A stretch of 63,894 nucleotides of DNA, filler included, from an uncultured Methanosarcinales archaeon (GTDB taxonomy: Archaea > Nanobdellota > Nanobdellia > Woesearchaeales > JAGLXL01): the NCBI GenBank assembly GCA_964472345.1. It is 5 parts of 5 records of this genome, joined end to end, with 100 filler letters (N's around TTAATTAATTAA, not from the genome) between each part and the next. Parts side by side here need not be neighbours in the genome. Positions count along the whole stretch, not along the records: positions 1 to 16,033 come from CAYYLB010000026.1; 4 more parts are not named here. One strand, written 5' to 3'. A program made the translations under genes and the position numbers. Numbering within the stretch: the first letter of the stretch is position 1; each line of letters opens with the position of its first letter. This document shows positions 1,316-15,927 of the stretch, in pieces. The notes beneath the pieces were generated by a model that was given only the letters and a program-made list of their open reading frames with translations, did no database searches and was not told the origin of the DNA.

Positions 1316-1316
1316 C

Positions 1317-2861
1317 TTAACCAAACCTCAGTATTTTCGCTGCGCGTGTCTTGAGGTTGATCGCAGGCACACGCGCCGGCTCGGGGTCGTGCCCCATTTT
1401 CTCCTGGAAGCTGGTCATGCTCTGCCAGCAGGAGCCGCTGATGAGGGTGACATGGCGGTACTGCGCCACCAGCGAATAATGAATATGGCCCGTCGCAAAA
1501 ATGTCTGGCACGCGGGAAATCACCAAAGGGTCTGTCTCGTGGTCGGGGATATAAAGCGTCGAGGTATGTGATGGTGCAAGGTGCCTGCGCTTCAGGAGAA
1601 ATCGCATGATCAGGTCAGCGCGGTGGTAGCCCCCGCTGTTGCGGAGCGAATCGGCAGTTGCGACGTAGTAATCAAATGAGTAGCCATGGTATAACAGGAT
1701 GTCAAGCCCAGGGAAGTGCTCCGATGCGTGGATGCGTAGGAGTGCGGGGTTGCTCACGAGGGTAACGTTCGGGAGCTGGTGCAGCGGAGCGGCAAAATCC
1801 TGGTCGAGGGGGGGCTGCGGCTCAGAGAGGCGGAGCGCATCATGATTGCCCGGGCAGAGGACGATATGGATATGGGGCGGGATCTGCGCAAGGAGCCGCG
1901 CAAACTCGCGATACTGTTCATAGATGTCCTGGATGATGAGCTCCTTGTCCTGGTTCGGATAGATGCCGATGCCGTCGACAAGGTCGCCCACAATAAAAAC
2001 ATACCGGACCTTCTGGGCCAGCTCGCGTTGCTCTTCCGTGCCCGACATGCCGCGGATCCAGCGCAGGAAATGCTGGAACGCGTCCGACAAAAAATACCGC
2101 GAGCCCACATGGATATCCGAAAGAAAAAGAGCATAGACCTCATCGGGTGCTTTCTTGAGCTCTTGGTTGTAGGGGATATCGGGCCAAAGGATGGTCTGGG
2201 CAAAGATGATGCGGTCCCCTGCAACGCCCACGATGCCGATGACTTCATCGAGCATGACATCCTGGGCGGCTGCGAACAGATCAGGCTTGTTCTTGCTGAT
2301 GAGCACGCGAATCTGCCCTGTGGGATCCTCAATGGTGAGAAAGAGGTGGCCACGGGGGGAAACGGCCTTTTCAGTGACAATGCCGATGGTGCTGGCGTGC
2401 TCCCGCGCCCGTTTCTTGAGGATGTGGTTGATGGAGAGCGCACCGGCAAGCTCGGGGCGCACGTGCAGCATCGGCCGGATAAGGCGATACCTCTGGTTGA
2501 AATAGCTGACAAAATCGTCAACGGTATGCGGCCGCGACGGCTTATCGTAGGAAAAAAGCACCTGAACAGGATTGAATGAACGAGAAATGGCTGCGGGAGA
2601 GGGAGAACCGCCAGCTCCGACCGACGCAAGATAGTCGTCGTAGCCCCGGTGGTGGCCCCGCTCCTGAAAGGCGCGAAGCTGATCGAGCTGCAGCCAGCTC
2701 ACGGTGGGGGAGTGTGCAAGGCGGGCGCTGTCGTGGGTTGCAATAACGAGGGAATTGGGGATATGGGGGATGATAATGGGTTGTTTGAGAACGTCGACGC
2801 CAGGGAGTGCGCGCTGGGCGAGCAGTTGGTTGATGGTGGGAAGGGGGTCATACGATGCCAT
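1317..2861 (-). CDS. polB: DNA polymerase D small (proofreading) subunit DP1
   Basis: OB fold (LTIEDPTGQI) plus calcineurin-like motifs SDIHVGS, GDLVDGIGIYPNQ, PGNHD, YHG, HLAP, TGHIH; start placed at ATG 2861, overlapping the cdc6 3' end. Confidence 0.95.
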   Translation of the reverse strand: MASYDPLPTINQLLAQRALPGVDVLKQPIIIPHIPNSLVIATHDSARLAHSPTVSWLQLDQLRAFQERGHHRGYDDYLASVGAGGSPSPAAISRSFNPVQVLFSYDKPSRPHTVDDFVSYFNQRYRLIRPMLHVRPELAGALSINHILKKRAREHASTIGIVTEKAVSPRGHLFLTIEDPTGQIRVLISKNKPDLFAAAQDVMLDEVIGIVGVAGDRIIFAQTILWPDIPYNQELKKAPDEVYALFLSDIHVGSRYFLSDAFQHFLRWIRGMSGTEEQRELAQKVRYVFIVGDLVDGIGIYPNQDKELIIQDIYEQYREFARLLAQIPPHIHIVLCPGNHDALRLSEPQPPLDQDFAAPLHQLPNVTLVSNPALLRIHASEHFPGLDILLYHGYSFDYYVATADSLRNSGGYHRADLIMRFLLKRRHLAPSHTSTLYIPDHETDPLVISRVPDIFATGHIHYSLVAQYRHVTLISGSCWQSMTSFQEKMGHDPEPARVPAINLKTRAAKILRFG

Positions 2862-4065
2862 GGGAGATGTCAAGTGACTTGCTGAGAAGCTCCTTGATGT
2901 GGGGGATTTCATGATGGGGGATTGCAAGGGTGACATCGCGCGTGCGGCCGTAGCGTCCTTTGGAGATCACGCGGGCGCGAACGATCCCAAGGGCATCAAG
3001 CTCCGCGATGATGTCAGAGACGCGCCGTTGCGTCAGTGGACGGAGCTTCACGCGGCGGCAGAGGCGCTCGTAGACATCATAGATCTCGCCGGTGAATGGT
3101 GAAGAGTGCCGTGCGCCAAAACTCAGCAAAGCATAGAGGACAAGCTGGAATTGTTTCGGCTGGTTGAGGGTGACATCAAGCAGCCGGTCGCGATCGATCT
3201 TTCCCTCAGCCTCATCGAGATGTTTAATTTCGACGTACTGGCAGCCTTTCCGCTCAGCGAGCTCACCCGCAACACGCAGGAGCTCAAGTGCGCGGCGCGC
3301 GTCCCCATGCTCCCGTGCGGCATAGGCAGCACATTTCTCAATCACGCCGCTGGTGAGTACCCCCTCACGAAAAGCCCGCTTCGCCCGGTCACGGAGGATG
3401 TCCTGCAGTTGGAGCGCGTTGTAGGGGGGGAAGAGTATTTCCTCCTCTGAGAGGCTGCTTCGGACGCGGGCATCGAGGTGGTCAGCGAACACAAGGTCGT
3501 TCGAGATGCCGATGAGAGAAAGCTGGGCGCGTTTCAATTCACCATTGATGCGGGTGAGGTTGTACATGATGTTGTCCCCGGCGCGTTTCACGAGCTGATC
3601 AATCTCATCAAGGATGAGGATGAAGAGCTGCTCCCGTTCATCGAGCAGCTCGTAGAAGAATGTGTATACCTGGTCGGTGGGAAGGCCGGTGGAGGGGACA
3701 GCTCTCCCGCATTCGCGCGCGAGCTGCGCGATGAGGCGGTACTCGGTGTCAGCGACTTTCCTGAGCTTACAGTTTACATAAAGTACGCGCAGGGGGACGC
3801 CGTTTTTCTGCGCAACGCTTTCCATGCTCTGGAGAACGTGACGCGTTGCGAGCGTCTTTCCCGTGCCGGTGTTGCCATAGACGAAGAGGTTTGATGGCCG
3901 ATCCCGCTTGAGTGAGGGGGCGAGCACCGCGGCAAGTTCACGCAACTCTGCATCGCGGTGGGGGATGGTTCTGGGGACGTAGCTGGACTGAAGGGCTCTT
4001 TTATCTGCAAAAAGGTGTTTATGTTTCAGGAAGCTCTCAAAGAAATGCTCAACTGACTGGACCAC
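2848..4065 (-). CDS. cdc6: Orc1/Cdc6 replication initiator
   Basis: Walker A GNTGTGKT, Walker B ILDEID, GDARRAL, C-terminal winged helix ending SKGRYGRT. Confidence 0.97.
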   Translation of the reverse strand: MVQSVEHFFESFLKHKHLFADKRALQSSYVPRTIPHRDAELRELAAVLAPSLKRDRPSNLFVYGNTGTGKTLATRHVLQSMESVAQKNGVPLRVLYVNCKLRKVADTEYRLIAQLARECGRAVPSTGLPTDQVYTFFYELLDEREQLFILILDEIDQLVKRAGDNIMYNLTRINGELKRAQLSLIGISNDLVFADHLDARVRSSLSEEEILFPPYNALQLQDILRDRAKRAFREGVLTSGVIEKCAAYAAREHGDARRALELLRVAGELAERKGCQYVEIKHLDEAEGKIDRDRLLDVTLNQPKQFQLVLYALLSFGARHSSPFTGEIYDVYERLCRRVKLRPLTQRRVSDIIAELDALGIVRARVISKGRYGRTRDVTLAIPHHEIPHIKELLSKSLDISHGIV

Positions 4066-4069
4066 CCGA

Positions 4070-4455
4070 CCCCCCCGTTTCCTGTGGAAACCAATTACGC
4101 AGCAGGATAACCAACTTATAAAGAAAGCGGAACGAAGGAAGGTAGTTTACAATAGATATACCAATAAAGATATTTAACAGAATATATATTAAAAAATATA
4201 AGTCAGAGAGAATAATAGTATGAAATGGATAAACAGAACAGCAGCACGACAACCGAAAACACCAATAAAGCACCCATAAAATGATGAACAGAAGCAGTAC
4301 TAATAATATTTCCATATAGAAACAAAAAGCAGCAAGCAGTGAGACAAAAGCAGAAGTCAAACCGATACAAAACCAAATGGGAAACCGGCGCCCACAGCGA
4401 ATACGCCAGCCACCACTTAAAGCTCCATCCAAAGCTCCACACGAAATAAAGGGGT
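4070..4455. promoter_or_regulatory. putative replication origin oriC with ORB boxes flanking an AT-rich unwinding element
   Basis: ORB-like GGTTTCCACAGGAAACGGGGGG (minus, 4071-4092), GCTCCACACGAAATAAAGGGGT (plus, 4434-4455) and mini-ORB-like TTTCCATATAGAAAC (~4309-4323), around very AT-rich DNA directly upstream of cdc6. Confidence 0.8.
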
Positions 4456-4617
4456 CTCCCAGCCATTAACTACCAATCCCGAACCAAAACCAGACAACTT
4501 CTTCACACATTCCACAAAAAGCGATAATAACCTTGCTTCACCACCCCACGACAAACGGCAAAACATTTAAATAACTGCGAACACTCAACAATAATCCAAA
4601 GAAAAGAGGTGACCTAA

Positions 4618-4812
4618 ATGACCGAACTTACGCTAACGGGGTTCATCCTTGCCATAATCATTGGAACACTGCTCGCAATCGTATATTCTCTTCGTATTCT
4701 GGTGATGCTCGAGCGCCGCATTGCAAACATCGAGGAGCACCTCGAGCGGATGACAAGGCACATCCTCCGTGACGAATCCGACATAAAAAAAGCGCTGAAG
4801 AGCAGGCGCTGA
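4618..4812 (+). CDS. small single-pass membrane protein with coiled coil
   Basis: SD GAGGTGA upstream; N-terminal TM helix; TATA-like TTTAAATA at ~4566. Confidence 0.75.
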   Translation: MTELTLTGFILAIIIGTLLAIVYSLRILVMLERRIANIEEHLERMTRHILRDESDIKKALKSRR

Positions 4813-4815
4813 TTA

Positions 4816-5325
4816 CTAATACCCCTCCTGCTCAAGCTGTGCAAGCTCCCTTTTCATCTGTTGGAGCCGGGAACGCACATCCTCAACCTTTAGTATTTCT
4901 CCGCACTCGGGGCAACGATACTCGAAGCCGACTGCCTGATCAAAATCCATACGCACGCAGCGGTTCGCGCAGCCAAAAAACTGCTCCCCCCCCTCTCGGG
5001 AGATCCGCTCTCGCAGCCGGCGCGCGCGGCTCTGTCGGATGCGGTCATAGAGGAACCGCACCTGCTCAGGCTTAAACGTCCAGTAATAGATATACCATCC
5101 TTTCTTCTTGTCCTTCTTTCGGGTAAAATCGACTAGGTTCTCTCCGTGGAGCCGGTAAAGGGCATTCCTCACTTTTCGGATGTCCTCTTTTAGCTGCTCA
5201 GCAAGCTTAAACTCAGAGATGTTTTCTTTGCCCCCAAGCTTTCGCACGAGCGGAAGGACGTCGTCCCCGCAGACGTCGCGGACGACCTCTTCAATCTTTG
5301 TGGGGGTTAAGCGGACTTTTACCAT
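4816..5325 (-). CDS. tfe: transcription factor E (TFIIE alpha)
   Basis: Winged helix VRNALYRL...GWYIYYW, Zn ribbon C-x3-C...CPECG; start placed at ATG 5325. Confidence 0.9.
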   Translation of the reverse strand: MVKVRLTPTKIEEVVRDVCGDDVLPLVRKLGGKENISEFKLAEQLKEDIRKVRNALYRLHGENLVDFTRKKDKKKGWYIYYWTFKPEQVRFLYDRIRQSRARRLRERISREGGEQFFGCANRCVRMDFDQAVGFEYRCPECGEILKVEDVRSRLQQMKRELAQLEQEGY

Positions 5326-5395
5326 CGCCGAAAATGACACTCTCCCTCCCGTGGCGCCATCTTTTAAACTTTTCGTGACTCCGCTTCAAAATAAA

Positions 5396-5507
5396 GGCGG
5401 CCGCCGAGAATTGAACTCCCGTGCTCCCGGCAACAGCAACTCGGTCCACGCGGGTTCCGCACAAAGCGTCCACAGCCGCGAATTCTCACCGTTAAACTAC
5501 GGCCGCC
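5396..5507 (-). tRNA. tRNA-His(GUG) with two introns (37/38, 15 nt, 5455-5469; 53/54, 24 nt, 5416-5439)
   Basis: Encoded G-1; acceptor GCGGCCG/CGGCCGC; anticodon stem CGCGG/CCGCG around CT-GTG-G; T-arm CCGAG-TTCAATT-CTCGG restored after removing a BHB-bounded insert; TATA at ~5531-5539. Confidence 0.88.
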
Positions 5508-5570
5508 GCGGAGAAAACCGAACAGCAGCAATTTATAAATCTTCTTCAACGGAATGGCTCAGTTCCCCCT

Positions 5571-6035
5571 TCACTCCTGGGGGACGCCCGTCACCTCTTC
5601 AACAAACGCAAGAAACTCCTTTGCAACCCGGTCAAAGTCATCTTCAAGCACGTCGATGTCAATCTCCGCGGTTCGGTTGCCGAGCTCGGCGACCATCGTC
5701 ACATGCCGCCGATACTCATTGCGTCGTGTATAGGGCGCTTTGTCCAACTCACGGAGAAACTGGTAAAACACAAGGTAGTTCCGCAAGATCGTGTCATCCG
5801 CCCGCATCTGGCGCAGCATCTTCACCTTCGCCCGCGGGCTTTTGGGAATTGCCTCGGCCGCACCCTGCTGCTGGAGATGCCCGATCAGCCCGTCGATGAT
5901 ATACTCAAATGCACTCACCAGGCGATGCAGTGCATTCCGGATCACGTCCACCGTGCGCGTGTACTTCAGGCTCACAAAGATGATATGGTCGACCCGTTTC
6001 AGCTCTTCCTTCGCCTCTTCAAGATACTCATTCAT
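5571..6035 (-). CDS. hypothetical protein (helical, possibly HEPN-like)
   Basis: Clean ORF from ATG 6035 (MNEYLEEAKEELKRVDHIIFVSLKYTRTVDV), co-oriented with neighbours. Confidence 0.75.
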   Translation of the reverse strand: MNEYLEEAKEELKRVDHIIFVSLKYTRTVDVIRNALHRLVSAFEYIIDGLIGHLQQQGAAEAIPKSPRAKVKMLRQMRADDTILRNYLVFYQFLRELDKAPYTRRNEYRRHVTMVAELGNRTAEIDIDVLEDDFDRVAKEFLAFVEEVTGVPQE

Positions 6036-6161
6036 CCCTATCACGCGCAGCGCGCAAGAACGACGCCATCCGCTCAGTTCGGACCCGTCCAAGAATGCAC
6101 ACAACTCCGCCCGCAGCGGGCTTTCCCATGGGAGTAGTGAACGTAGTCGACTATAAAAACC

Positions 6162-6491
6162 CTACGCTTTTAACTGCAGGATTGTCCGGGCGATGTCACC
6201 CTCATTCGCTTCGAGTGCCGCCGCCGCGCGGGCCTCGTCGATACCGGCCTGCTCTGCCACGGTCTTGACATCTTCGTGGGAAATCGCCGCCCGCTCACGC
6301 GGCTCGCCCGTGATCTGCCAGGTCTGCTGTCCCATCATATTCACCTTGTGCACGGCAGGTCGCTCAAAAACAAGCTCCCGGGTGGGCGTTCTGATCACAA
6401 CCTCAACCGCATCAATCTCCTGCTGTTGCACGCCAAGCCGTTGCATCATCCGGTCCATCTGTCGCGGGTTCACGGACTGCCCCCGATCCAC
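6162..6491 (-). CDS. nac: nascent polypeptide-associated complex protein
   Basis: NPRQMDRMMQRLG...VEVVIRT...MMGQQTWQITG plus C-terminal UBA-like DVKTVAEQAG...GDIARTIL. Confidence 0.92.
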   Translation of the reverse strand: MDRGQSVNPRQMDRMMQRLGVQQQEIDAVEVVIRTPTRELVFERPAVHKVNMMGQQTWQITGEPRERAAISHEDVKTVAEQAGIDEARAAAALEANEGDIARTILQLKA

Positions 6492-6652
6492 GAGCTCCCG
6501 ACATAATGCAGCAGCACGATGAGCAGTCCAAGAATCAGCGCAAGCACGATGACATGCCCCGGAGCGATTTGGAACCTGCTCTGGTACTCATCAAAATAGC
6601 GGGTCAGCCCCCCCATGCCCGAAGGCAGCCGGATCTTGTCTTGTCGTCCCAT
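6470..6652 (-). CDS. secG: preprotein translocase subunit Sec61beta
   Basis: LPSGMGGLTRYFDEY...IAPGHVI plus TM helix, the Sec61beta signature. Confidence 0.9.
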   Translation of the reverse strand: MGRQDKIRLPSGMGGLTRYFDEYQSRFQIAPGHVIVLALILGLLIVLLHYVGSSWIGGSP

Positions 6653-6661
6653 GGGAAAAGA

Positions 6662-7000
6662 GTTGGATGGAGTAAGCCACCTTTTGTTGCGCTTCCCCCA
6701 ACAGGAGGAACAGCGCTTCAGGACATTCTACTCTGCGTCATTGAAGACTTACACCGGCCAGATTCGCCGTTTCATCGTATCCTGGGTGCGAAGTCAGGTG
6801 GTTATCTGACCTTCCTCACGGAAAGCGTCGCAACCATCATCCCATCACGCAGGCCGTGCCGTTGCTGAGCCAGAGCCCCCATTGCTGAGGCTTCCTCTCG
6901 GAAGTGGCCGTTTTCCGCCGAAAGACATCATCATCTCATATCCTCGGCGGGGTGGGTGGACTTTCCTCAGGCACCTGCCCGAAGTCCTGCACCATCCAAC
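6662..7000 (-). ncRNA. rnpB: RNase P RNA
   Basis: P1 GTTGGATGG/CCATCCAAC; CR-I GAGGAAAGTCCACCC; CR-V AACAAAAGGTGGCTTACT (P4 pairing CCACC/GGTGG); TATA at ~7023-7030. Confidence 0.92.
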
Positions 7001-7133
7001 AGGGAACCAGCCACCCTACCCGTTTATAAACCTTTCTTACTCTGGCCAGTCTCTTCCCGCGTTCATGCCTCAGAGGCACCTTATGCTGCGGAGGAGCAAG
7101 AACAAACGGCAAGGCCCTGCAGGCAGGAAAACC

Positions 7134-8153
7134 ATGGCCCAAAACCCGCCCCCAAAAAGGCTCACCGGCCTCGGCAGCGAACTCGCGCTTCTCAGGAAAC
7201 TCACCGCACTTGTCAAGCCTGTCGCATCGAGATCAGTCCCCATCGGTGATGACTGCGCCATCATTCCCGACGGGAAAAACTTCCTTCTGCTCACGACAGA
7301 CATTCTCGTCGAGGGCAACCATTTCACCACAGAGTATATGAGCCCCGCCCAGCTCGGCAAGAAAGCGATTGAAGTGAACGTCAGTGACATTGCAGCCTGC
7401 GGCGGCCTTCCGCGGTATGCGGCGGTTTCCCTTGTCCTTCCAAGGCATACCACCCCAAAATTTCTCAAGGATCTCTACACAGGCATCGCTCACGCCTGCC
7501 GTCGCTACGGGATTAAGATCATCGGAGGCGATACGACGAGGGGCCGTTTCATCGTCATCAACGTTGCACTTCTCGGGCGCGTCGAGCGCACACACCTGTG
7601 CAGGCGCTCCGGCGCCAGGATAGGTGACCATATCCTCGTGACCGGGCCTCTTGGCGAAAGCGCAGCAGCGCTCGCGCTCCTTCGTGCCCGCCGCGCGCAA
7701 TTGCACAGCACCTCAGCCTACACCGAGCCCTGCGCTCAGCTCGCACGGGCGCGTGCCATCGCCCCCCACTGCAATGCGATGATTGATATAAGCGACGGGA
7801 TTGCGTCGGAAATACGCCATATCTGCCTCCAGAGCGGCACCGGCGCCCGCATCGAGCAAGAAAAGATTCCCATGAGCCGTGCGACGAAACGCATCGCGGC
7901 GCTGCTCGTGCGTAATCCCTATCTATGGGCGCTGCGCGGCGGCGAGGACTTCCAGCTCGTCGCAGCAGTTTCCCCCCGCGTCTACCGCCGCCACAGGCGC
8001 CTCTTCCGCGGCTGCACCATTATCGGAGAAATCCGTCCGAAAAACGAGGGTATCCGGCTCATCGAGCGTCGGAACGGCAGAGAGCATCGCCGTGCGCTCG
8101 GCTTCGGCTACACACATTTCCCTGCTGCCGAACTAATCACCCCTAAAAAATAG
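7134..8153 (+). CDS. thiL: thiamine-monophosphate kinase
   Basis: IGDDCA, TTDILVEGNHF, NVSDIAACGG, IIGGDTT, MIDISDG, GGEDFQL motifs; start placed at ATG 7134. Confidence 0.95.
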   Translation: MAQNPPPKRLTGLGSELALLRKLTALVKPVASRSVPIGDDCAIIPDGKNFLLLTTDILVEGNHFTTEYMSPAQLGKKAIEVNVSDIAACGGLPRYAAVSLVLPRHTTPKFLKDLYTGIAHACRRYGIKIIGGDTTRGRFIVINVALLGRVERTHLCRRSGARIGDHILVTGPLGESAAALALLRARRAQLHSTSAYTEPCAQLARARAIAPHCNAMIDISDGIASEIRHICLQSGTGARIEQEKIPMSRATKRIAALLVRNPYLWALRGGEDFQLVAAVSPRVYRRHRRLFRGCTIIGEIRPKNEGIRLIERRNGREHRRALGFGYTHFPAAELITPKK

Positions 8154-8162
8154 TAAAAACAC

Positions 8163-8177
8163 CGAAAGATTTATATA
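8163..8177 (+). promoter_or_regulatory. archaeal BRE-TATA promoter with no obvious downstream CDS
   Basis: CGAAAGATTTATATA matches the BRE+TATA consensus. Confidence 0.6.
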
Positions 8178-8299
8178 CTAGTTCTACTAAATGGTAGTGA
8201 AATAGTGGAGGCGTTCTTCTGAGCGCTTTCATTATCCAAACACCTCCGACAGTGCCAGAAATGACCTTTCTGGCACGTCATACTCAATCACCTCTTTTT

Positions 8300-8351
8300 C
8301 CCTCGCGGGCTGCGAGCAATCGCGGTCCGCGGGGGTTTGTTTTTCTTTTCT
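8300..8351 (+). terminator. 16-bp GC hairpin with GCAA tetraloop followed by a U-tract
   Basis: CCCTCGCGGGCTGCGA-GCAA-TCGCGGTCCGCGGGGG then TTTGTTTTTCTTTTCT; G-U pairs form only on the plus strand. Confidence 0.6.
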
Positions 8352-8497
8352 ATAGAGGGAATACCTCTGAATACCTCTATGAGTGCAGTTATATTTTTCC
8401 AGCAGAGCGGCTCTAATTGCCCCATTCACGGAAAAGAGCGGGGTGCTGCACAGCTTAACGCCTATACGAAGCAACAGGCAAATTCATCTAAATCAAG

Positions 8498-8512
8498 CGA
8501 AATTTTTATATA
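8498..8512 (+). promoter_or_regulatory. BRE-TATA promoter for the structured RNA/dnaG transcript
   Basis: CGAAATTTTTATATA, about 25 nt upstream of the start of the structured region. Confidence 0.7.
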
Positions 8513-8535
8513 GTTCCGCTGCTTTGGGCCTTCTT

Positions 8536-8790
8536 GCCCGTCACGAGAGTACCCAAGGGAGTGGACGCATCCCTGCGAGCCGTGAGCTTGGGGGTTAGTG
8601 GCCCGGGCATCATATTCAACGGAAGAAGAACCGGCTTGCGCTCAAGCGGCAGAAGGCCAGATTCACATGCTCATACCTGACACCAACAAGGTATCTCTTT
8701 GCCAGGAAGCAGTAGGGAGCAGGTAGCATCGCGAAGCTGATGCGGGCGTTCTGTCTTTCGTAACAGCGCTGCTAACCGCAGCAAATGTGA
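8536..8790 (+). ncRNA. structured ~250-nt RNA upstream of dnaG (family unassigned)
   Basis: Nested helices found by hand: TCACG/CGTGA, GGTTAGTGGC/GCTGCTAACC, GGGCAT/ATGCTC, ATACCT/AGGTAT, GCATC/GATGC, CTGT/ACAG; own promoter; no credible ORF. Confidence 0.7.
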
Positions 8791-8800
8791 GGGGATTCCC

Positions 8801-10063
8801 ATGGGAAAGATAGCTCCTGTTTCGTCAAAATATATCATCCATACCGCCATCCAGATTGATGGCGTTGTCGATCGTCCTGATGTCATTGGTGCGATTTTCG
8901 GCCAGACGGAGGGGCTGCTCGGTGCCGACCTTGAGCTCCGCGAATTGCAGCGCTCAGGCCGCATTGGTCGCATCGAAGTGAATGTTAACACAAGTTCGAG
9001 CCGCACCATCGGGGAGATCGCTATCCCCAGTTCGCTCGACAAGGCTGAAACCTGCATTGTCGCTGCCGCACTCGAGGTTATCCAGCGCATAGGGCCATGC
9101 AACGCCAAGATTGAAGTGCGCCAGATTGAGGATGTGCGTGTTTCGAAGCGGACGTTCGTCATTGACCGGGCAAAGGCGCTTCTGCGTCAGCTCACCGACA
9201 CCGTGATGCCTGATTCGCAGGAGCTCGCCGACGAAGTTTCGCAGTCTGTCCGCGTTATGGAAGTTGTGGAATACGGAAGGGAGCGCCTTCCCGCCGGTCC
9301 CACCGTTGACGAAAGCGATGAGATCATCATTGTTGAGGGCAGGGCTGATGTGCTCAACCTCCTCAAGTATGGGATCAAGAATTGCATTGCCATCAATGGC
9401 ACATTCGTTCCCCAGACGGTGAAGGAGCTGAGCGGAAAGAAGACCATTACTGCCTTCGTTGATGGAGACCGTGGTGGCGATCTCATCATCAGGGAGCTGC
9501 TCAGCGTCGCCGAGATAGACTTCGTATGCAGAGCACCGGATGGCAAGGAAGTCGAGGAGCTCACGCAGAAGGAGATTCACAAGGCACTGCGGGGCAAGGT
9601 CACTGCCGAGCAGGTGAAGCTCGACATCTCCCAGAAGCTCGCCGCCGGCGACGACAGCCGCCAGCGTCCCCTCATGCAAAGGAAACCGCTGCTCCCGAAG
9701 CCGGCGCCCCCAAGACCACTGCCGCCATCAAGGCTGATGCCCCCGCGAAGACAGGAGCAGAACGAGCTCACCGCGGCGGAAAAGGGGAAGCTCAAGAGCG
9801 CGCTTGAGGACGTTTTCGGGACGCGCGGAGCGTACCTTTTCGACAGCAGCCTGAATGTGCTCGGGAAAGTTCCCGTCACGGAGCTCGCAACAACGATACG
9901 AAGCGTGGGAAATGTCTACGCAGTCGTCATGGACGGCACGGTGGATCGGGAATTGCTCAAGATCATCGATCAGGCGAACGTCCGCTGCGTCGTTTCTATG
10001 GATGCTCCTGCGAAAGGCACGGAAGCCCGGACACTCGTCCTGACGGACGCAGAGCTCGTCTGA
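8801..10063 (+). CDS. dnaG: archaeal DnaG (DnaG-type primase / exosome-associated RNA-binding protein)
   Basis: [37 protein letters not shown]-terminus; [15 protein letters not shown]...FVDGDRGG. Confidence 0.97.
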
Positions 10064-10177
10064 GCGTTGGAGCAGGCCTGCGCGGGCAACGGTGGAAACG
10101 CAGGCCTTCAATCCTTTTTTTGCTTTCGTGCAGGCTCCGTCGAAAAGATTTAAAAACAGCGCAGCGAACCATCACTC

Positions 10178-11542
10178 ATGCCTTTCGACATTGTGGTTGG
10201 CCGCAGCAGGCAGGACTCCGAAAAATACGGCACCCAAGGCGCCATCCTCATCGGCAAGCAGTACGTGCAGATGGGTGCGGCAACCTCGCTTTCGAATGGT
10301 ATTTTTATCGATGTGATGCGCTCCCATGCTGTCTTCGTCTGCGGGAAGCGCGGCTCCGGAAAAAGCTACTCGATGGGTGTCCTTGCCGAGGGGGTCGCGC
10401 AGATGCCCGAAACCGTGAAACAGAATCTCAGCGTTATTCTCCTGGACACGATGGGCGTCTACTGGACCATGAAGTATGCCAATCACCAGGATGCCGCCTT
10501 GCTGCGCACCTGGGGCCTCGAACCGCAAGGGCTCGGCGTCAAGATTTTCACCCCCGCCGGTGTCTACGACCTCTACAAGGAGAAAGGCATCCCAAGCGAC
10601 GCCCCGTTCGCAATCAAGCCCGCTGACCTGAACGCGGAGGACTGGTGCCTGACATTTGGGCTCGACCCCAACGCGCCTGCAGGCGTTCTCATCGCCCGCA
10701 TTACCGGTGAGCTGCGTGAGCAGAAAAAGGGTTTTAGCCTGCAGGATCTCATGCGGGCTGCTGAGAACGATGGGAAAGGCGATGAGCACACCAAAAACAT
10801 TGTCATCAGCCACTTCCAGCGTGTCGGCGCATGGGGCATCTTCTCGAAGAAAGGCACCTCCATCAAGGAGCTTGCGGTTGCAGGCCAGGTCACCGTCCTG
10901 GATATGAGCCACTATGCGACGCTGCCCAACGGCTGGCTGATCAAGTCACTGGTCATCGGCTTGGTCGCAAAGAAGCTCTTTACCGAGCGTATGCTCGCGC
11001 GGCGCAACGAAGAGCTCGCCCAGGTGACATCTGCCATGCATTACATTGCCCAGGACCTGCCGGAAAAGCTCGAAGAACCGCTCGTCTGGCTCGTCATCGA
11101 CGAAGCGCATGAAATACTCCCCAACGACGGCAGGACGGCCGCGACCGATGCGCTGGTCACCGTCCTCCGTGAAGGCCGCCAGCCCGGCATCAGCCTCGTG
11201 CTCGCCTCACAGCAGCCGGGAAGAATTCATACCGATGTCATCACGCAGAGCGACATTGTCATCGCCCACCGGCTGACCGCGCAGATCGATGTTGACGCCC
11301 TTGGCCAGCTCACGCAGACCTACATGCGCGAGGGGCTTGTGCAGAAGCTTGATACCCTCCCGCGCGTGAACGGCGCTGCCGTCATCTTCGACGACCTTAA
11401 TGAGCGCATCCTTGCGGTTCAGGTCCGCCCCCGCATCACCTGGCACGGCGGCAATGCACCTACCGCGCTTCTGGAATCAGCCAATGTGCCGTTCTCACAA
11501 GCCAAGGCCTTGCAGGGCGAACTCAAGGAAGAACTAGGCTAG
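10178..11542 (+). CDS. HerA/FtsK-like (DUF87) ATPase
   Basis: Walker A GKRGSGKS, Walker B VIDEAH, LREGRQPG, ASQQP. Confidence 0.88.
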   Translation: MPFDIVVGRSRQDSEKYGTQGAILIGKQYVQMGAATSLSNGIFIDVMRSHAVFVCGKRGSGKSYSMGVLAEGVAQMPETVKQNLSVILLDTMGVYWTMKYANHQDAALLRTWGLEPQGLGVKIFTPAGVYDLYKEKGIPSDAPFAIKPADLNAEDWCLTFGLDPNAPAGVLIARITGELREQKKGFSLQDLMRAAENDGKGDEHTKNIVISHFQRVGAWGIFSKKGTSIKELAVAGQVTVLDMSHYATLPNGWLIKSLVIGLVAKKLFTERMLARRNEELAQVTSAMHYIAQDLPEKLEEPLVWLVIDEAHEILPNDGRTAATDALVTVLREGRQPGISLVLASQQPGRIHTDVITQSDIVIAHRLTAQIDVDALGQLTQTYMREGLVQKLDTLPRVNGAAVIFDDLNERILAVQVRPRITWHGGNAPTALLESANVPFSQAKALQGELKEELG

Positions 11543-11603
11543 GCCGCGGCGGCAAGGCACCTGCATCGAAAGGAAAACGGACTTGACAGCGATCGCACCG
11601 CTG

Positions 11604-11810
11604 TCATACCCCGCGCCGCTTCATCGGAATCGGTGCGTAGGTCATGCTCACCAGCGCAGCGACAAACGTTACAGTGAAGAAAACGAGGAACGCAACACCC
11701 CAGTCGCTGCTTCGGGGCAGCACCCAAACGCCCGACACGGCAAGCCCCAGCAGCGCCGTCAGCATGAACGACGCCGGCAACGGTGCGGCCTTCCAGCCTT
11801 TCCATATCAT
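11604..11810 (-). CDS. small two-TM membrane protein
   Basis: SD GAGGTGA upstream; two hydrophobic segments. Confidence 0.75.
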   Translation of the reverse strand: MIWKGWKAAPLPASFMLTALLGLAVSGVWVLPRSSDWGVAFLVFFTVTFVAALVSMTYAPIPMKRRGV

Positions 11811-11984
11811 TCAGATCACCTCATTCCGAAGGGAAGCAAACTCATTTATAAATGCTTTGAGCAAGCACACGTTGGTAGGTAATTCGCTCACGCGGCACTG
11901 CGGCGGCAAGCCAGCACACCCTCAGTGTTTCAATAATGCCAGAGCGCAACAACCTTTAAAAACAGCCGTCCCCTTTCTCGGCGC

Positions 11985-12734
11985 ATGGTTGGGCTGTATG
12001 AGATGCGCTCGCGGCTGGGGCATTATTTCGCCTTCAGCACAAAAGAGATATGGGAATTGCTTGCGGTCACTGCAATCCTCGGCTTCGTGTTCTCGTTCCG
12101 TGATTGGGGGAGCGGCGGACAGGTTGATGCTGCCGCAGGAATCTGGCACCTGCTGCTGATGATGGCCATCGCTGCGACTGCGTTGTTCGCACATGAGTCA
12201 GCACATCGCGTGCTGGCGCTCTATCAGGGACTAAAGACGGAGTTCAAGATCTGGTGGGGCGGGCTGGTGACAGGCCTCATCCTGGTGTTTGCTTCGAACG
12301 GATTGGTCCAGGTCGCGCTGCCGGGCGGGATGGTAACTTCATTGCTGGTGAGGACGCGCGTGGGGGAGTTCCGCTACGGGCTGAAGGAGTTCGAGCACGG
12401 CGTCATTGCGCTCGCCGGCCCGCTGGCGAACCTTGCGCTTGCGTTCGCCGCGAAACTGCTGCTTTCCGCGGTACCGGACAGCTGGTTCCTGCAGAAGATG
12501 CTGTTCTTCAACGTGGTGCTCGCGGTCTGCACGATGCTGCCGATACCGCCGCTGGACGGCATCACCACGTTCTGGGGCGGACGGGTGCTGTACGCGCTGT
12601 CGTTCTTCGGCATCCTCGGCGCGGCGGTTTTCCTGTACTTCACGAGCATCGCACTTGCGGTGATCGGCGGCATCATCGTGATGCTCCTTGCGACACTCCT
12701 CTATTATTTCATCGTGGAGGCGCGCCCTGAATGA
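11985..12734 (+). CDS. M50/site-2-type membrane metalloprotease
   Basis: HESAH, AGPLAN, LPIPPLDG motifs; multiple TMs. Confidence 0.88.
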   Translation: MVGLYEMRSRLGHYFAFSTKEIWELLAVTAILGFVFSFRDWGSGGQVDAAAGIWHLLLMMAIAATALFAHESAHRVLALYQGLKTEFKIWWGGLVTGLILVFASNGLVQVALPGGMVTSLLVRTRVGEFRYGLKEFEHGVIALAGPLANLALAFAAKLLLSAVPDSWFLQKMLFFNVVLAVCTMLPIPPLDGITTFWGGRVLYALSFFGILGAAVFLYFTSIALAVIGGIIVMLLATLLYYFIVEARPE

Positions 12735-13081
12735 AACCGGGCGAGTTCCTCATTGATTATTGGGTGGAAGTGCTGGCGGCAGCGCTGCTGCTGATCGGCT
12801 TCCTCATCGCTTTGGTGCTGCGGAGCGCGGCGATGCATTATGTTATTATTTTTGTCGCCGGCCTGCTGTGCGGGCGCGTCGTGTATGAGAAGTACCGCCA
12901 CCAGCCGATCCTGCCGTTCATCCTCATCATCATCGGGTTCCTGCTCGGATTCATGCTCGGAGCGATCATCGCGAACAAGAAGGTTATTTTCGCCCTTTTC
13001 CTGCTCGGCGCAGGGGTGTCCTACTGGGCGCACCGGAAAGGGTACATCGGGTTCTTCAAGGAGGAAGGGTTCATCAAGTGA
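12731..13081 (+). CDS. four-TM membrane protein
   Basis: ATGA overlap with the M50 gene; hydrophobic. Confidence 0.8.
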   Translation: MKPGEFLIDYWVEVLAAALLLIGFLIALVLRSAAMHYVIIFVAGLLCGRVVYEKYRHQPILPFILIIIGFLLGFMLGAIIANKKVIFALFLLGAGVSYWAHRKGYIGFFKEEGFIK

Positions 13082-13230
13082 TTGGATCGCGCCGGCATGA
13101 TTCGCTGACGCACCTGCTGCGTACCACTGAAAAAAAGGTGAATGACCTGCTGCTCATTCTCACAGCGAACAGATAACCGAGAGCGCGCTGCCCACATAAC
13201 TATTTAAAGAACGGGGGCTCTCCGAGCGTC

Positions 13231-13419
13231 ATGGTCACGCAAGAGGAGTTCGGATCGCTCGTGGCTGAGTACGAGGGTTTCCGCGACACGATGCTCGATG
13301 AAATTACCGGGCTGCGGGAAGAGCTCGAGAACCTCAAGGAAGAGCTTAAGGAGCTGAAGCAGATGCTGGCATCGGAGTTCGATCTTGATCGGGCGCAACG
13401 GCGGCTGGTGTTGCGATAA
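13231..13419 (+). CDS. small acidic coiled-coil protein
   Basis: TATA TTTAAA at ~13203; heptad pattern. Confidence 0.65.
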   Translation: MVTQEEFGSLVAEYEGFRDTMLDEITGLREELENLKEELKELKQMLASEFDLDRAQRRLVLR

Positions 13420-13450
13420 TCTTTTAAAGCTCTTTTTCTGCAGCAGGCGG

Positions 13451-15640
13451 ATGCTCCGTGATTTCACGCCGCGGCTGTACCAGCAGACGATTCTCGGGAC
13501 CGCTGCGCTGAAGAACACGCTTGTCGTGCTGCCGACGGGGCTGGGGAAGACGGCTATCGCAGTGATGCTCGCTTCCCAGCGGCTGATGCAGTATCCGGGC
13601 TCGAAAGTGCTGTTCCTCACGCCGACCAAGCCGCTGGCGGAGCAGCACCTTGCAACACTTGAGCAGCATCTTGGGCTGCCGAAGGAAGCGTACGCGTTGT
13701 TCACGGGAGCGGTAAGCCCCGCGGAGCGAGCAGCCCTGTGGCAAAAAGCGCAGATCATCGTCGGGACTCCGCAAGGCGTGGAGAATGACGTGCTCGGCAA
13801 CAAGATCGAGCTTGCGCACGTGAGCCTGCTTGTGCTGGATGAAGCACATCACGCGACGGGCGACTACAGCTATTGTTTCCTGGCGAAGCAGTATGCCGCC
13901 CGAGCCCGTTTTCCGCGCATCCTCGGGCTGACCGCCTCGCCCGGCTCAGATCTGGAGAAGATCCGCGAGGTGTGCATGAACCTGTTCGTTGAAGCGGTGG
14001 AAGTGCGGACGCTGCAGGATGCGGACGTCGCGCCCCACGTGCGGGATATCACCACTGAGTGGATTGGGGTGGAGCTGCCGGAGCCGCTGGCGGAGGTGCA
14101 GAAGCTGCTCGCGGACTGCCTGCGGGTGAAAATGGCGGCGGTGCAGCGGCTCGGCTATGCGCAGCAGCTGCAGATGTCACGGAAAGAGCTGCTGCAGCTG
14201 CAGGCGCAGCTCCATGGGGAGATTGCACAAGGCGCGTATGATGAAGCACTGCTGCGCGCGGTTTCGCTGGTCGCGGAAGCGCTGAAGGTATATCATGCAC
14301 TTGAGCTGCTGGAGACGCAGGGGATTACGGCGCTGTCCAACTACCTGCAGAAGCTTGAGGCTGAGGCACGACAGGGAAAGAGCAAGGCTGCACGGAACCT
14401 TGCGGCTGACGCGCTGTTCAAATCCGCATGTGTTCGGACGGCGCGGCTTGTTGAGGCGAATGTGGAGCATCCGAAGCTGGCGAAGGCGGCGGCGATCGTG
14501 CAGGAAGAGCTTGCACGGGATCCGCAGGGAAAAATTATCATATTCACCCAGTACCGCGATTCGGGGGTTGGGGTTGTGAAGGCGCTGCAGCAGCTGCCGG
14601 CGGTGCGGGCTGCGCTCTTCGTCGGCCAGGCGAAGCGCGGAGAGACGGGGCTGAGCCAGAAGGAGCAGAAAGCGATGCTCGATGAGTTCCGCACGGGAAA
14701 GGCGAATGCCCTCGTGTGCACATCAGTCGGCGAAGAAGGGCTTGACATCCCTGCGGTCGATCTGGTGCTGTTCTATGAGCCGATCCCCAGCGCGATACGG
14801 CACATCCAGCGGCGCGGCAGAACCGGCAGGCAGCAGGCGGGAAGGGTGCTCGTGCTCGTTACGAAAGGGACACGGGATGAGGCGTACCGCTGGGCAGCGC
14901 ACCACAAGGAAAAACGGATGCATCATGTGCTCAGGCAGCTCAAGCGCGGGCTTGCGGTCACCCCGGTGAAGATGCCGGTGCAGCAGGCTGCCGGGCAGCA
15001 GGTGCAGGTCATTGCTGATTATCGTGAGAAAGGCTCCGAGGTCATGAAGCAGCTCATCGAGCTTGGACTGGTGCTCCGGCTCGAGAAGCTACAGGCTGCG
15101 GATTACCTGTGCTCGGCGCAGTGCGCGATCGAGTTCAAGACCGTCGAGGATTTTGTGAGCTCTCTCATCGACGGAAGGCTGCTTGAGCAGCTGAAGGAGC
15201 TGAAGCGGAACTTCGCGAAGCCGCTTGTCATTGTGCAGGGAACGCAGGACATCTACGCGGTGCGGAAAGTGCACCCCAATGCCATCCGCGGTATGCTCGC
15301 GACCATCGCGGTGAGCTTCGGCATCCCGATCCTGCAGACGAAGAGCGCGCTTGAGACGGCTGGCCTGCTTGCGGTCATCGCGCGGAGGGAGCAGGACACA
15401 AGCCGCGATGTGAGTTTGCACGCGAAGAAGCCGCTGACGCTGGCGGAGCAGCAGGAGTACCTGGTGTCTGCGCTGCCGGGCGTCGGGCTGAAGATGGCGC
15501 AGGCGCTGCTGAAGCATTTCGGGACGGTGGAGAAGCTGGCGGCGGCAACAGCCGAAGAGCTGAAGAATGTGGAAGGGATCGGCGAAGTGATGGCGCAAAG
15601 GATACGGGAGGTGCTGGAGAAGGATTACAGGAAGGGTTGA
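13451..15640 (+). CDS. hef: Hef helicase/nuclease (SF2 helicase + ERCC4 nuclease + HhH)
   Basis: LPTGLGKT, DEAHH, GLTASP, QRRGRTGR, ERCC4-type ADYLC..IEFKT, C-terminal HhH LPGVG/VEGIG. Confidence 0.95.
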   Translation: MLRDFTPRLYQQTILGTAALKNTLVVLPTGLGKTAIAVMLASQRLMQYPGSKVLFLTPTKPLAEQHLATLEQHLGLPKEAYALFTGAVSPAERAALWQKAQIIVGTPQGVENDVLGNKIELAHVSLLVLDEAHHATGDYSYCFLAKQYAARARFPRILGLTASPGSDLEKIREVCMNLFVEAVEVRTLQDADVAPHVRDITTEWIGVELPEPLAEVQKLLADCLRVKMAAVQRLGYAQQLQMSRKELLQLQAQLHGEIAQGAYDEALLRAVSLVAEALKVYHALELLETQGITALSNYLQKLEAEARQGKSKAARNLAADALFKSACVRTARLVEANVEHPKLAKAAAIVQEELARDPQGKIIIFTQYRDSGVGVVKALQQLPAVRAALFVGQAKRGETGLSQKEQKAMLDEFRTGKANALVCTSVGEEGLDIPAVDLVLFYEPIPSAIRHIQRRGRTGRQQAGRVLVLVTKGTRDEAYRWAAHHKEKRMHHVLRQLKRGLAVTPVKMPVQQAAGQQVQVIADYREKGSEVMKQLIELGLVLRLEKLQAADYLCSAQCAIEFKTVEDFVSSLIDGRLLEQLKELKRNFAKPLVIVQGTQDIYAVRKVHPNAIRGMLATIAVSFGIPILQTKSALETAGLLAVIARREQDTSRDVSLHAKKPLTLAEQQEYLVSALPGVGLKMAQALLKHFGTVEKLAAATAEELKNVEGIGEVMAQRIREVLEKDYRKG

Positions 15641-15690
15641 GTTATGTGCATAACAGAAGTATTTTATCAGTTCTTCTGTTTTATAAAAAA

Positions 15691-15927
15691 CTAAAACACA
15701 TCGCTCGCAATCAGCGTCTCCGTCCCCGTGATGCCTTCGACCTTCCGCACCTTCTCGACGAAGTCGCGCAGGTCCGCCATCGTCTTCGCCCTGATCTTGA
15801 TGATGATGTCCCACTGGCCGTAGAGCTGGTGCATGTTCTCCACTTCCTTGAGTTTCATAAGCCGCTGGCTCACGGCGTCGATCCTGCCGCGGGCGACGGT
15901 GGCAAGCATATAGGCAAGGGCGGGCAT
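15691..15927 (-). CDS. Lrp/AsnC ligand-binding (RAM) domain protein
   Basis: LYGQWDIIIKI...IRKV-like EKVRKVEGITGTETLI; start ATG 15927. Confidence 0.88.
   Translation of the reverse strand: MPALAYMLATVARGRIDAVSQRLMKLKEVENMHQLYGQWDIIIKIRAKTMADLRDFVEKVRKVEGITGTETLIASDVF

Follow-up and report, generated by a model that had tools for sequence, protein, structure and literature searches.

An RNA without annotation lies on the plus strand directly ahead of dnaG in the genome of an uncultured archaeon of the Woesearchaeales, and the question was what this RNA is and how far it belongs to the gene behind it. The locus was analyzed as part of a window of 63,894 nucleotides, by which we mean the whole stretch of DNA under study; all positions refer to it. 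An earlier note, made from the sequence alone, had described a promoter followed by about 250 nt of RNA that folds almost completely, and had proposed a new family of large RNA associated with DnaG. The sequence and the coordinates given there were correct, and the RNA itself proved to be real, structured, unannotated, and provided with its own promoter. It did not prove to be a single new family of about 250 nt; its conserved core is a hairpin of 73 nt (Table 1). We propose, with a probability of roughly 0.8, that this hairpin and its tail are a single-hairpin guide of the box H/ACA type for helix 69 of 23S rRNA, placed ahead of a separable dnaG leader.

Table 1. Features of the dnaG locus in the window
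Feature	Position	Strand	Description
Promoter	8497..8512	+	BRE-like GCGAAA (8497-8502) and TATA box TTTTTATATA (8503-8512); the hairpin starts 24 nt further
Putative H/ACA-type guide hairpin, 73 nt	8536..8608	+	Lower stem, predicted pseudouridylation pocket, upper stem with K-turn, apical hairpin; 84.8 bits with covariance model R1
Lower stem, 5' strand	8536..8544	+	GCCCG (8536-40), U8541, CAC (8542-44)
Pocket, 5' strand, GAGAGUA	8545..8551	+	Same sequence in 63/90 copies
Upper stem, 5' strand, CCCAAG, then G-GA-GU	8552..8562	+	G-GA-GU is the unbulged K-turn strand; upper stem co-varies
Apical part: GGA, CGCA-UCCC-UGCG hairpin, A	8563..8578	+	Site of insertions in relatives
Bulged K-turn strand GC-CGU-GA-G, then upper stem, 3' strand, CUUGGG	8579..8592	+	Consensus NAUGAR before the stem; AAUGAGC in 35/90 copies
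Pocket, 3' strand, GGUUA, then GUG, 3-nt bulge GCC, CGGGC	8593..8608	+	AGUUA in 67/90 copies, GGUUA in 17/90
Tail and linker AUCAUAUUCA	8609..8618	+	UCAUA-type linker motif; no ACA at the usual ACA place; AUA at 8612-14
Structured dnaG leader (3' domain), ~140 nt	8619..8761	+	Fold of the window sequence; base helix 8619-8631/8748-8761
UCAY-rich tract in the leader	about 8662-8677	+	From sequence
Small hairpin GCUGC-UAACC-GCAGC	8768-82	+	From sequence and single-sequence fold only
GAGGGG, Shine-Dalgarno-like	8789-94	+	Start codon 6 nt further; from sequence only
dnaG	8801..10063	+	420 aa; Pfam Toprim_2, Toprim_4, Toprim

Conservation of the hairpin and its linkage to dnaG

The hairpin is a single-copy element, present in 134 of 151 genomes from the order and in 141 of 151 genomes of a class-wide draw. 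Across an alignment of 90 copies, 97% of the cells paired, and 12 of the 18 pairs changed on both sides, in 131 cells; this alignment was fitted to the covariance model, which favors structure. None of 500 shuffles equaled the co-variation of the hairpin, and slid controls paired in 22-45% of the cells. When 18 copies were aligned independently with MAFFT, pairing was 96% and six pairs changed on both sides. The Rfam check that had been suggested for this stretch was run on positions 8150-8900 and gave no match at E ≤ 10; the stretch is not SRP RNA. Other known RNAs were found at other places, with SRP RNA (RF01857) matched at G000:C25 (118 bits), 5S rRNA (RF00001) at G000:C10 (66 bits), and RNase P RNA (RF00373) at window positions 6662-7000 on the minus strand. 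A small protein gene was also rejected. The ORFs of 48 and 71 aa had no Pfam match, and the insertions and deletions among relatives do not come in multiples of three, with hairpin lengths of 70-108 nt in 17 relatives, in agreement with the earlier statement that the stretch holds no credible ORF.

For 81 distinct hairpins, dnaG was found on the same strand 107-572 nt downstream, so that the occurrence of similar motifs upstream of dnaG in other archaea, as the note had it, holds within the class. The dnaG genes downstream of the hairpin in relatives were 50-77% identical by tblastn. The minimum distance from the hairpin to the dnaG start codon is 107 nt, and the short loci have no room for a second promoter. 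A guide function gives no reason for this near-constant linkage. The BRE-TATA promoter recognized earlier is present, and among 55 related loci without an extra upstream hairpin, 32 have a TATA-like hexamer starting at -36 to -26 from the hairpin, a count that is partly due to chance in these AT-rich genomes. The extra upstream hairpin (SL1) occurs in 26 of the 81 loci, and the guide hairpin is there the 3' hairpin of a two-hairpin RNA. A target search with SL1 gave no site common to three genomes. Named records with the hairpin in a collection scan were mostly titled Candidatus Woesearchaeota; the scan used a gap of 40-70 nt and missed the standard 73-nt hairpins (gap 38), and its seven matches are insertion-bearing copies only. 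In a search of sequencing runs, no RNA run contained the stretch, which was present only in DNA contigs of groundwater and soil metagenomes.

Anatomy of the hairpin and H/ACA protein genes

In the part of PMC7075261 available to us, an archaeal H/ACA RNA is defined by a lower stem, a pocket, an upper stem, and an apical loop, with the distal G:A pair at upper-stem position 9-10 and a spacing rule of 15 ± 1. The hairpin has the anatomy of such an archaeal box H/ACA guide and includes tandem GA/GA motifs. In the lower stem, GCCCG pairs with CGGGC (8604-08) and CAC with GUG (8598-8600); the latter pairing is replaced by CAU/AUG in other orders, and 75 of the 90 copies carry the 3-nt bulge. The 5' strand of the upper stem is followed by NGGA in most of the 90 copies (UGGA in 39, GGGA in 12, CGGA in 11, and AGGA in 9). 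The K-turn was recognized by its sequence pattern, in which GGA faces AUGA(G/A) on the opposite strand in nearly all 90 copies. Counted along CCCAAG-G-GA of the window, the distal G:A pair falls on upper-stem position 9. For the consensus, 11 nt of the lower-stem 3' strand (3-nt bulge included) and 4 paired pocket nucleotides give a spacing of 15, and a single linker base then precedes the ACA. The apical stem (3 bp) co-varies, with one pair being GC in 34, AU in 30, and CG in 22 copies, and apical insertions in relatives reach about 35 nt. This stem is the CGCA/UGCG hairpin (8566-69/8574-77) that had been drawn before. The assignment to the plus strand was likewise confirmed, since alignment pair 29-167 is U-G in 52 of the 90 copies.

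The tail was compared among the same 90 copies. ACA is present at +2 to +4 in 55 of them, an ANA starts within +1 to +3 in 69, and A is found at +4 in 88. The window tail, AUCAUA, has no ANA at +1 to +3 and has AUA at +4 to +6; the AUCAU type was seen in three copies. By our own count, this nearest ANA of the window lies about 18 nt from the U1915 position. Stem-loop 2 of sR-h45 requires its ACA box, according to the available text of PMC7075261. The window tail without a canonical ACA counts against the reading as a guide.

The genome of the window encodes Cbf5 (393 bits), Nop10 (60.7 bits), and L7Ae (100.7 bits), all above the cut-offs. Gar1 was not found in this genome with a model that also missed one of four archaeal controls. 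In three genomes Cbf5 lacks the PUA part, and these genomes may lack the guide as well.

Predicted pairing with helix 69 of 23S rRNA

The assembly of the window's genome contains no 16S or 23S rRNA, which is a point against the guide reading; the target pairing was read in the rRNA of other genomes. GUUA of the pocket pairs with UAAC of 23S rRNA (1911-1914, E. coli numbering) and GAGAGU with ACUCUC (1919-1924). These 4 + 6 Watson-Crick pairs to helix 69 leave U1915-A1916-U1917-A1918 (UAUA) unpaired, and the site is the same in five genomes. A search under the classical rules (two unpaired target bases, pocket offset 0-2), covering the window's own genome and five rRNA sets, gave no shared site. 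The helix 69 site surfaced only after single-arm complements had been listed and the limit had been raised to four unpaired bases, a number that is atypical for a target.

The rRNA searches used the pocket of the window and those of five genomes. Helix 69 was the sole 16S/23S rRNA site in G093, G033, and G185, and it was again the sole site for the window pocket in the rRNA of G024; with the genomes' own pockets, two weaker sites were added in G024 and one in G227. Under the same permissive rules, shuffled pockets found some site in 15-53 of 100 cases, and complementarity alone is therefore weak evidence. The guide also co-varies with its target. An A stands opposite U1920 in 8 of 8 genomes and a G opposite C1920 in 9 of 10 (17 of 18 overall), a co-variation that tracks the tree (other orders versus the order of the window) and may amount to one or two events. 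The pairing points to a pocket that would direct pseudouridine formation at U1915 and/or U1917. In the literature, no mapped pseudouridine was found for any member of the class.

Detached hairpins and the dnaG leader

The roughly 180 nt beyond the hairpin are a separate dnaG leader, which is less conserved than the hairpin. Its base helix in the window holds AGAAC/GUUCU, the local form of a conserved AGAACAAG/CUUGUUCU helix; a loose pattern detected this helix in 62 of 81 loci and a strict pattern in 42. The interior varies in sequence and length and spans 62-146 nt among well-matched helices. The pattern AGAACAAG-N50-80-CTTGTTCT was present in 18 of 121 genomes, with 12 matches adjoining the hairpin; matches away from the hairpin occurred at the rate of a reversed-pattern control (8/121), and the leader was rejected as a repeated regulon element. 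It was also rejected as a second H/ACA hairpin, since by eye it has no K-turn motif and no constant ANA follows its stem.

In two genomes, G185 and G084, the hairpin lies away from dnaG and ends in ACA and a U-run (INDEPENDENCE from dnaG). The G185 hairpin scored 63.5 bits with model R1. In G084, dnaG retains the leader with only a decayed remnant of the hairpin, and this split indicates that guide and leader are separable in evolution. Compared by eye, the G185 stretch resembles stem 2 of the H/ACA sRNA of Nanoarchaeum equitans (PMC3491384), with a GCCCG...CGGGC stem, the loop strands GAGAGU and GUUAGUG, a K-turn, and ACA, and the two are taken as members of one family. The same text gives the N. 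equitans RNA as 159 nt long with 10,900 reads, its own promoter, and a T-stretch. It differs from the window in that the hairpin is the second one of a free-standing two-hairpin sRNA, situated between the genes for tyrosyl-tRNA synthetase and a hypothetical protein instead of ahead of dnaG, and without the 3' domain.

The detached copies bear on another explanation, according to which the whole stretch of about 290 nt is a cis-regulatory leader of dnaG, where, for example, L7Ae or DnaG bound to the K-turn would control translation or mRNA stability. Binding of L7Ae to K-turns of archaeal mRNA leaders has been reported (PMC5539422, in the portion available), and the strict linkage of 81 hairpins to dnaG, at a gap never below 107 nt and in short loci with no space for a second promoter, would fit such a leader. 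However, the hairpins of G185 and G084 keep their sequence, ACA, and U-run away from dnaG, and the dnaG of G084 keeps its leader. Furthermore, co-variation of the internal loop with 23S rRNA is unexpected of a protein-binding leader, and in N. equitans the counterpart occurs as a discrete sRNA of high abundance in the text cited above. We regard a purely cis-acting stretch as quite unlikely. An autoregulatory role, as had been considered for the whole RNA, is possible only for the downstream domain of about 140 nt.

Comparison with known guides

For stem-loop 2 of sR-h45 from Haloferax volcanii, formation of Ψ1940 and Ψ1942 (E. coli 1915 and 1917) was shown experimentally, according to the passages of PMC7075261 at hand. 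The likeness to this RNA is one of pairing arrangement. Both are K-turn hairpins whose pocket pairs on either side of the loop of helix 69, with four bases left free; stem-loop 2 needs these to be 'UVUN', which is UAUG in Haloferax and UAUA here. In many relatives of the window copy the hairpin is, as in sR-h45, the 3' hairpin of two. The window copy differs from sR-h45 stem-loop 2 in being a single hairpin with no canonical ACA, a 3-nt bulge in the lower stem, and the dnaG leader behind it, and in that we infer the modification. The H/ACA sRNAs Pf7, Pab40, and Afu-4 of Pyrococcus and Archaeoglobus guide the 1915-equivalent pseudouridine in vitro (cited in PMC2584109, as seen in part). These RNAs differ in that the 1917 equivalent is reportedly not made, and they have multiple hairpins and belong to other phyla. 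From sequence likeness and analogy, the guide would correspond to stem 2 of the N. equitans sRNA and would act like stem-loop 2 of sR-h45.

An H/ACA-type hairpin could also serve some other target, such as a tRNA, 16S rRNA, or another 23S site, or could be a non-modifying 'orphan' acting in rRNA folding. Sites are readily found by shuffled pockets, the four unpaired bases are not typical, and for N. equitans stem 2 the targets named by RNAsnoop were 23S U614 and 16S U796, not helix 69, in the available text of PMC3491384. Against these points stand, from searches of 16S and 23S rRNA, the identity of the helix 69 site in five genomes and its co-variation with the guide in 17 of 18, and helix 69 is the kind of target shown for stem-loop 2 of sR-h45 (PMC7075261, same passages). 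We regard another target as very improbable.

Folding of the whole stretch

The minimum free energy of the stretch was -108.7 kcal/mol, compared with -103.4 ± 5.6 kcal/mol for shuffles (z = -0.95), and folding was as good in 32 of the 200 shuffled sequences, so that the nearly complete folding described earlier does not distinguish it. The minus strand gave z = -0.40. Most of the helices that had been drawn are not conserved. The closing stem UCACG/CGUGA (8541-45/8581-85) pairs in 58.7% of the cells in 90 relatives, a value reached by 240 of 500 shuffled columns, and its bases belong to the lower stem and the K-turn. The pseudoknot or kissing loop that had been suggested for AGGGA (8556-60) was not supported, as AGGGA is part of the upper stem and the K-turn; its partner columns are in a variable loop. 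The 10-bp stem GGUUAGUGGC/GCUGCUAACC is present in the window, but it has no counterpart in four relatives of the same family, where the best complements are 6-8 nt long and have other partners. GUUAGUG is conserved for a reason other than this stem.

A single large noncoding RNA of about 250 nt and of a new family, serving as RNP partner, template, or scaffold of DnaG, would agree with a conserved RNA ahead of dnaG that has no Rfam match and with a downstream domain whose conserved closing helix is specific to the dnaG locus, yet we regard it as very unlikely, as the two parts separate in evolution, the helix joining them is not conserved in close relatives, the fold is no better than that of shuffles, the 3' part is variable inside in both sequence and length, and an H/ACA guide accounts for the 5' part. 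The analysis gave no indication of a DnaG partner, template, or scaffold.

Proposed function and implications

For the H/ACA-type guide that we favor, transcription would start from the TATA box. By analogy with archaeal H/ACA particles that have been solved and tested, L7Ae would bind the K-turn of the upper stem, and Cbf5 and Nop10 (and Gar1 if present) would hold the lower stem and the 3' tail. Both strands of the internal loop would then pair with helix 69 and place UAUA at the active site, where U1915 and/or U1917 would be converted to pseudouridine. A single transcript probably carries the guide, the leader, and dnaG; the guide would be cut out of it, or transcription might terminate partially on the guide. 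The guide appears to be of the ordinary H/ACA kind and unusual mainly in its fusion to a conserved dnaG leader.

The conserved leader is the part that the guide reading leaves unexplained. One speculative possibility, which we consider rather doubtful, is that the fixed order of promoter, guide, leader, and dnaG, maintained throughout a class of archaea with small genomes, reflects a functional coupling beyond the shared promoter. The leader, with its invariant AGAACAAG/CUUGUUCU helix and tandem UCAY repeats, would then be a new cis-element at which a nuclease or a protein that binds RNA, either DnaG together with the exosome or a factor with a KH domain, frees the 3' end of the guide and simultaneously sets dnaG expression. 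If this were true, ribosome modification would be tied to RNA-decay or primase capacity.

The present assignment names an RNA found in about nine of ten sampled genomes of a very large and mostly uncultured archaeal class, and it proposes for this RNA a target that can be tested. Rfam is without a matching model, and the covariance model of this analysis could be used to annotate the hairpin in metagenomes. The results further suggest that the sole H/ACA sRNA known in N. equitans serves helix 69 and not the sites predicted in 2012. They also suggest that these reduced genomes share the minimal H/ACA repertoire of archaea known from Haloferax, with helix 69 first.

Folding of the region ahead of dnaG and known RNA families

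The stretch read as the earlier note had written it: a BRE-like GCGAAA and a TATA box, about 290 nt with no credible ORF, and then dnaG. The claim that this region folds almost completely was not upheld. The plus strand had a minimum free energy of -108.7 kcal/mol versus -103.4 ± 5.6 kcal/mol for the shuffles (z = -0.95), 32 of 200 dinucleotide shuffles matched its folding, and the minus strand gave z = -0.40. Because the single-sequence fold was no better than chance, the argument needed comparison with relatives. Only positions 1-16033 of the window belong to the contig of the finding (G000:C26, from the window's genome); positions 16034-63894 are N or other contigs, so context past 16 kb is not readable as synteny.

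Rfam at gathering thresholds returned RNase P RNA and three tRNAs from the window, with no match at 8498-8800. A permissive scan of 8150-8900 gave no match among 4227 families at E <= 10. SRP RNA, the known family that the earlier note had named as a competing identity, was rejected, as it sits on another contig of the genome (118 bits); 5S rRNA was rejected likewise (other contig, 66 bits). About 120 nt at the start of an AIR-synthase-related ORF coincide with the RNase P RNA match (101.8 bits); the true start of that ORF is therefore probably further downstream. Two tRNA matches, judged by their lengths of 111 and 87 nt, are probably both intron-containing; the longer is barely over the Rfam threshold (31.7 versus 29 bits).

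Features of the locus and of the conserved hairpin
Feature	Position (strand)	Description
tRNA match	5396-5506 (-)	111 nt
RNase P RNA	6662-7000 (-)	Rfam match
AIR-synthase-related ORF	6882-8153 (+)	
Upstream ORF	8232-8474 (-)	80 aa
Conserved upstream element	8240-8345 (+)	(A/U)CACCUCU-U-run-CCC, G+C-rich hairpin, GGGGUUU
Promoter	8497-8512	BRE-like GCGAAA + TATA box TTTTTATATA (sequence)
Guide hairpin	8536-8608 (+)	73 nt
Lower stem		GCCCG/CGGGC + CAC/GUG past a 3-nt bulge
Internal loop		5' side GAGAGUA, 3' side (A/G)GUUA
Upper stem		5-6 bp
K-turn pattern		GGA / AUGA(G/A) with 3-nt bulge
Apical part		2-bp stem, small conserved loop, 3-bp apical stem (insertion site)
Leader helix equivalent	8619-8631/8748-8761	
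dnaG	8801-10063	Toprim domains
tRNA match	54625-54711 (+)	87 nt

A conserved hairpin, probably an H/ACA guide

In a blastn comparison of 8480-8800 with 40 relatives, about 80 nt (8536-8616) proved conserved across many of the order's families, at 73-77% identity, and tblastn placed dnaG directly downstream. In an alignment of 90 hairpin copies, which was fitted to the hairpin model, 97.0% of cells pair, and both sides change at 12 of the 18 pairs (131 cells). None of 500 shuffles matched this co-variation, and in slid controls 22-45% of cells paired. An independent MAFFT alignment of 18 copies was 96% paired, with six pairs changing on both sides. Frequent U-G pairs assign the hairpin to the plus strand. 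Among the helices drawn in the earlier note, CGCA/UGCG alone is consistent with the comparative structure. UCACG/CGUGA was 58.7% paired, the same as shuffles; the bases of the proposed AGGGA/UCCCU contact belong to the upper stem and K-turn, and the 10-bp stem linking the two halves is peculiar to the window.

In its anatomy the hairpin matches the definition of an archaeal box H/ACA guide in PMC7075261. Its distal G:A pair occupies upper-stem position 9, within the 9-10 of the rule given there. The 11 nt of the lower-stem 3' strand plus the four target-pairing pocket bases make 15, against a spacing rule of 15 ± 1 in the same paper. Of 90 copies, 55 have ACA at tail positions +2 to +4 and 88 have A at +4. 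The window's tail, AUCAUA, is a minority form (AUCAU in 3/90) with ANA only from +4. No RNA sequencing run was found to contain this stretch.

Distribution and linkage to dnaG

Of 151 genomes of the order searched with the hairpin's covariance model, 134 have exactly one copy each, as do 108 of the 116 high-quality ones. In a phylum-level draw of 151 genomes, which contained this class alone, the hairpin was present in 141, among them 27 of the 34 that belong to other orders. A weak second match turned up in one genome. Linkage was resolved for 83 of the hairpins (the alignment totals 90): for 81 distinct hairpins in the fetched loci, a dnaG start follows on the same strand after 107-572 nt, and in genomes G185 and G084 the hairpin is away from dnaG. 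Insertion-bearing copies occur in seven public records, titled Candidatus Woesearchaeota (5) or "uncultured Methanosarcinales" (2). Three genomes are unpublished: G139 (locus L044) enters the 134/151, dnaG-linkage, 90-copy and upstream-hairpin counts, G120 the 134/151 count and the dispersed-element scan of the leader, and G008 the 40 relatives of the blastn comparison. No claim depends on any one of them.

Papers on H/ACA RNAs from Woesearchaeota, or from other members of the class that are uncultured, did not turn up in full-text literature searches. No guide RNA linked to dnaG appeared among the titles and abstracts retrieved, and the word dnaG does not occur in the Nanoarchaeum equitans paper (PMC3491384).

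The window's genome carries Cbf5, Nop10 and L7Ae-family genes; Gar1 was not found in it. Three genomes of family f141 (G168, G201 and G222) gave no hairpin match, and their Cbf5 ends at model positions 236-282 of 322 (214-226 bits, below the cut-off), as if without the RNA-binding PUA part. Full-length Cbf5 is present in seven other genomes with no hairpin match.

Predicted target in helix 69

When the rRNAs of five complete relatives were searched for complements of single pocket arms, one site recurred: TAACTCT, within helix 69 of the 23S rRNA. In the predicted pairing, guide GUUA faces UAAC and GAGAGU faces ACUCUC, leaving UAUA unpaired; from the E. coli helix 69 sequence we take these bases to be U1915 to A1918. 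The universal pseudouridines of helix 69 are 1915 and 1917, according to Grosjean 2008 (PMC2584109). The predicted layout corresponds to the "UVUN" arrangement of Haloferax sR-h45 stem-loop 2, which makes both of them, as described in PMC7075261.

Neither 16S nor 23S rRNA is assembled in the window's genome, and the pairing was read from rRNAs of relatives. Against the 16S and 23S rRNAs of G024, G093 and G033, helix 69 was the only site for the window's pocket. It was again the sole site for the own pockets of G093, G033 and G185; the pockets of G024 and G227 gave additional, weaker sites, two and one respectively. Under the same rules 15-53 of 100 shuffled pockets found some site, so pairing by itself is not strong evidence. 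The weight of the predicted targeting is borne by guide-target co-variation: where 1920 is C, the facing guide position is G in nine of ten genomes, the exception being a genome whose hairpin is degenerate; where it is U, the guide has A in all eight. This split tracks the tree and thus possibly reflects just one or two events.

In six genomes (G166, G097, G220, G067, G221 and G005; 23S rRNA loci L115-L120 and L124-L129), the 23S match is interrupted just past helix 69, where ~300-800 nt are inserted. The insertion is probably an rRNA intron and lies a few bases away from where modification is predicted.

Detached copies and upstream elements

In G185 the hairpin is the second of a promoter-to-U-run unit of ~159 nt, with an ACA hinge before it and AACA-CUUUUU after it, and its neighbour is a gene for a class I Trp/Tyr tRNA synthetase. 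Randau 2012 (PMC3491384) describes an RNA of exactly this kind as the only H/ACA sRNA of N. equitans; by eye, the sequence in the supplement of that paper resembles the G185 locus. An extra H/ACA-like upstream hairpin, SL1 (GCAAAUGGGUCCU...GAUGA...GACACUCUUGC-AAUACA), ending in ACA right before GCCCG, occurs in 26 of 81 loci of the order; the window is without it. It lies ~95 nt upstream of the guide hairpin at L011, L012, L014, L015, L022 and other loci; no rRNA target common to three genomes was found for it. Just ahead of the hairpin in locus L090 (G084:C50) is a ~34-nt tandem repeat of the SL1 end, ACA and the guide's first 22 nt, which could be genuine or could stem from the assembly.

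The conserved element upstream of the guide's promoter, commonly as two tandem units, also occurs at L003, L005, L007, L010, L016, L023, L024, L028, L031, L036, L044, L060 and L132. Its pattern gave 20 matches in the fetched loci and three in the window's whole genome (contigs C26, C55 and C63). The element had no Rfam match; its 5' part resembles the 3' end of 16S rRNA. It overlaps the 80-aa ORF on the minus strand, for which Pfam gave no match and which is unlikely to be a gene.

The dnaG leader

At least 107 nt separate the hairpin from dnaG in every locus. Behind the hairpin, a helix AGAACAAG/CUUGUUCU was found in 62 of 81 loci with a loose pattern and in 42 with a strict one. The sequence of its outer 8 bp does not vary, and the pair that follows co-varies (C-G 16, U-A 11, A-U 4). 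At the four inner positions 58% of cells pair versus 45% with shuffled partners (maximum 56% in 500), a figure favoured by picking the best partner per locus. The 5' part of the interior is rich in UCAU/UCAC repeats, and the remainder is variable.

After ACA, linkers of ~31-33 nt (e.g. L022, L023, L029, L033, L039 and L044) contain AAC(C/A)CUUUAAU...UCAUAAAA, which resembles a BRE/TATA box ~19 nt ahead of AGAACAAG and may be a second promoter for the dnaG leader in some lineages. Linkers of 13-17 nt at other loci are too short for one.

A dispersed element was rejected as an explanation of the leader by a pattern scan of 121 genomes. In G084 the guide has relocated together with ACA and a U-run but without the leader domain; dnaG there keeps that domain along with a promoter, the linker and what is left of a decayed hairpin. 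In G185 dnaG is without a leader. The leader domain goes with dnaG, not with the guide, and the favoured candidate role is processing or control of the guide-dnaG transcript.
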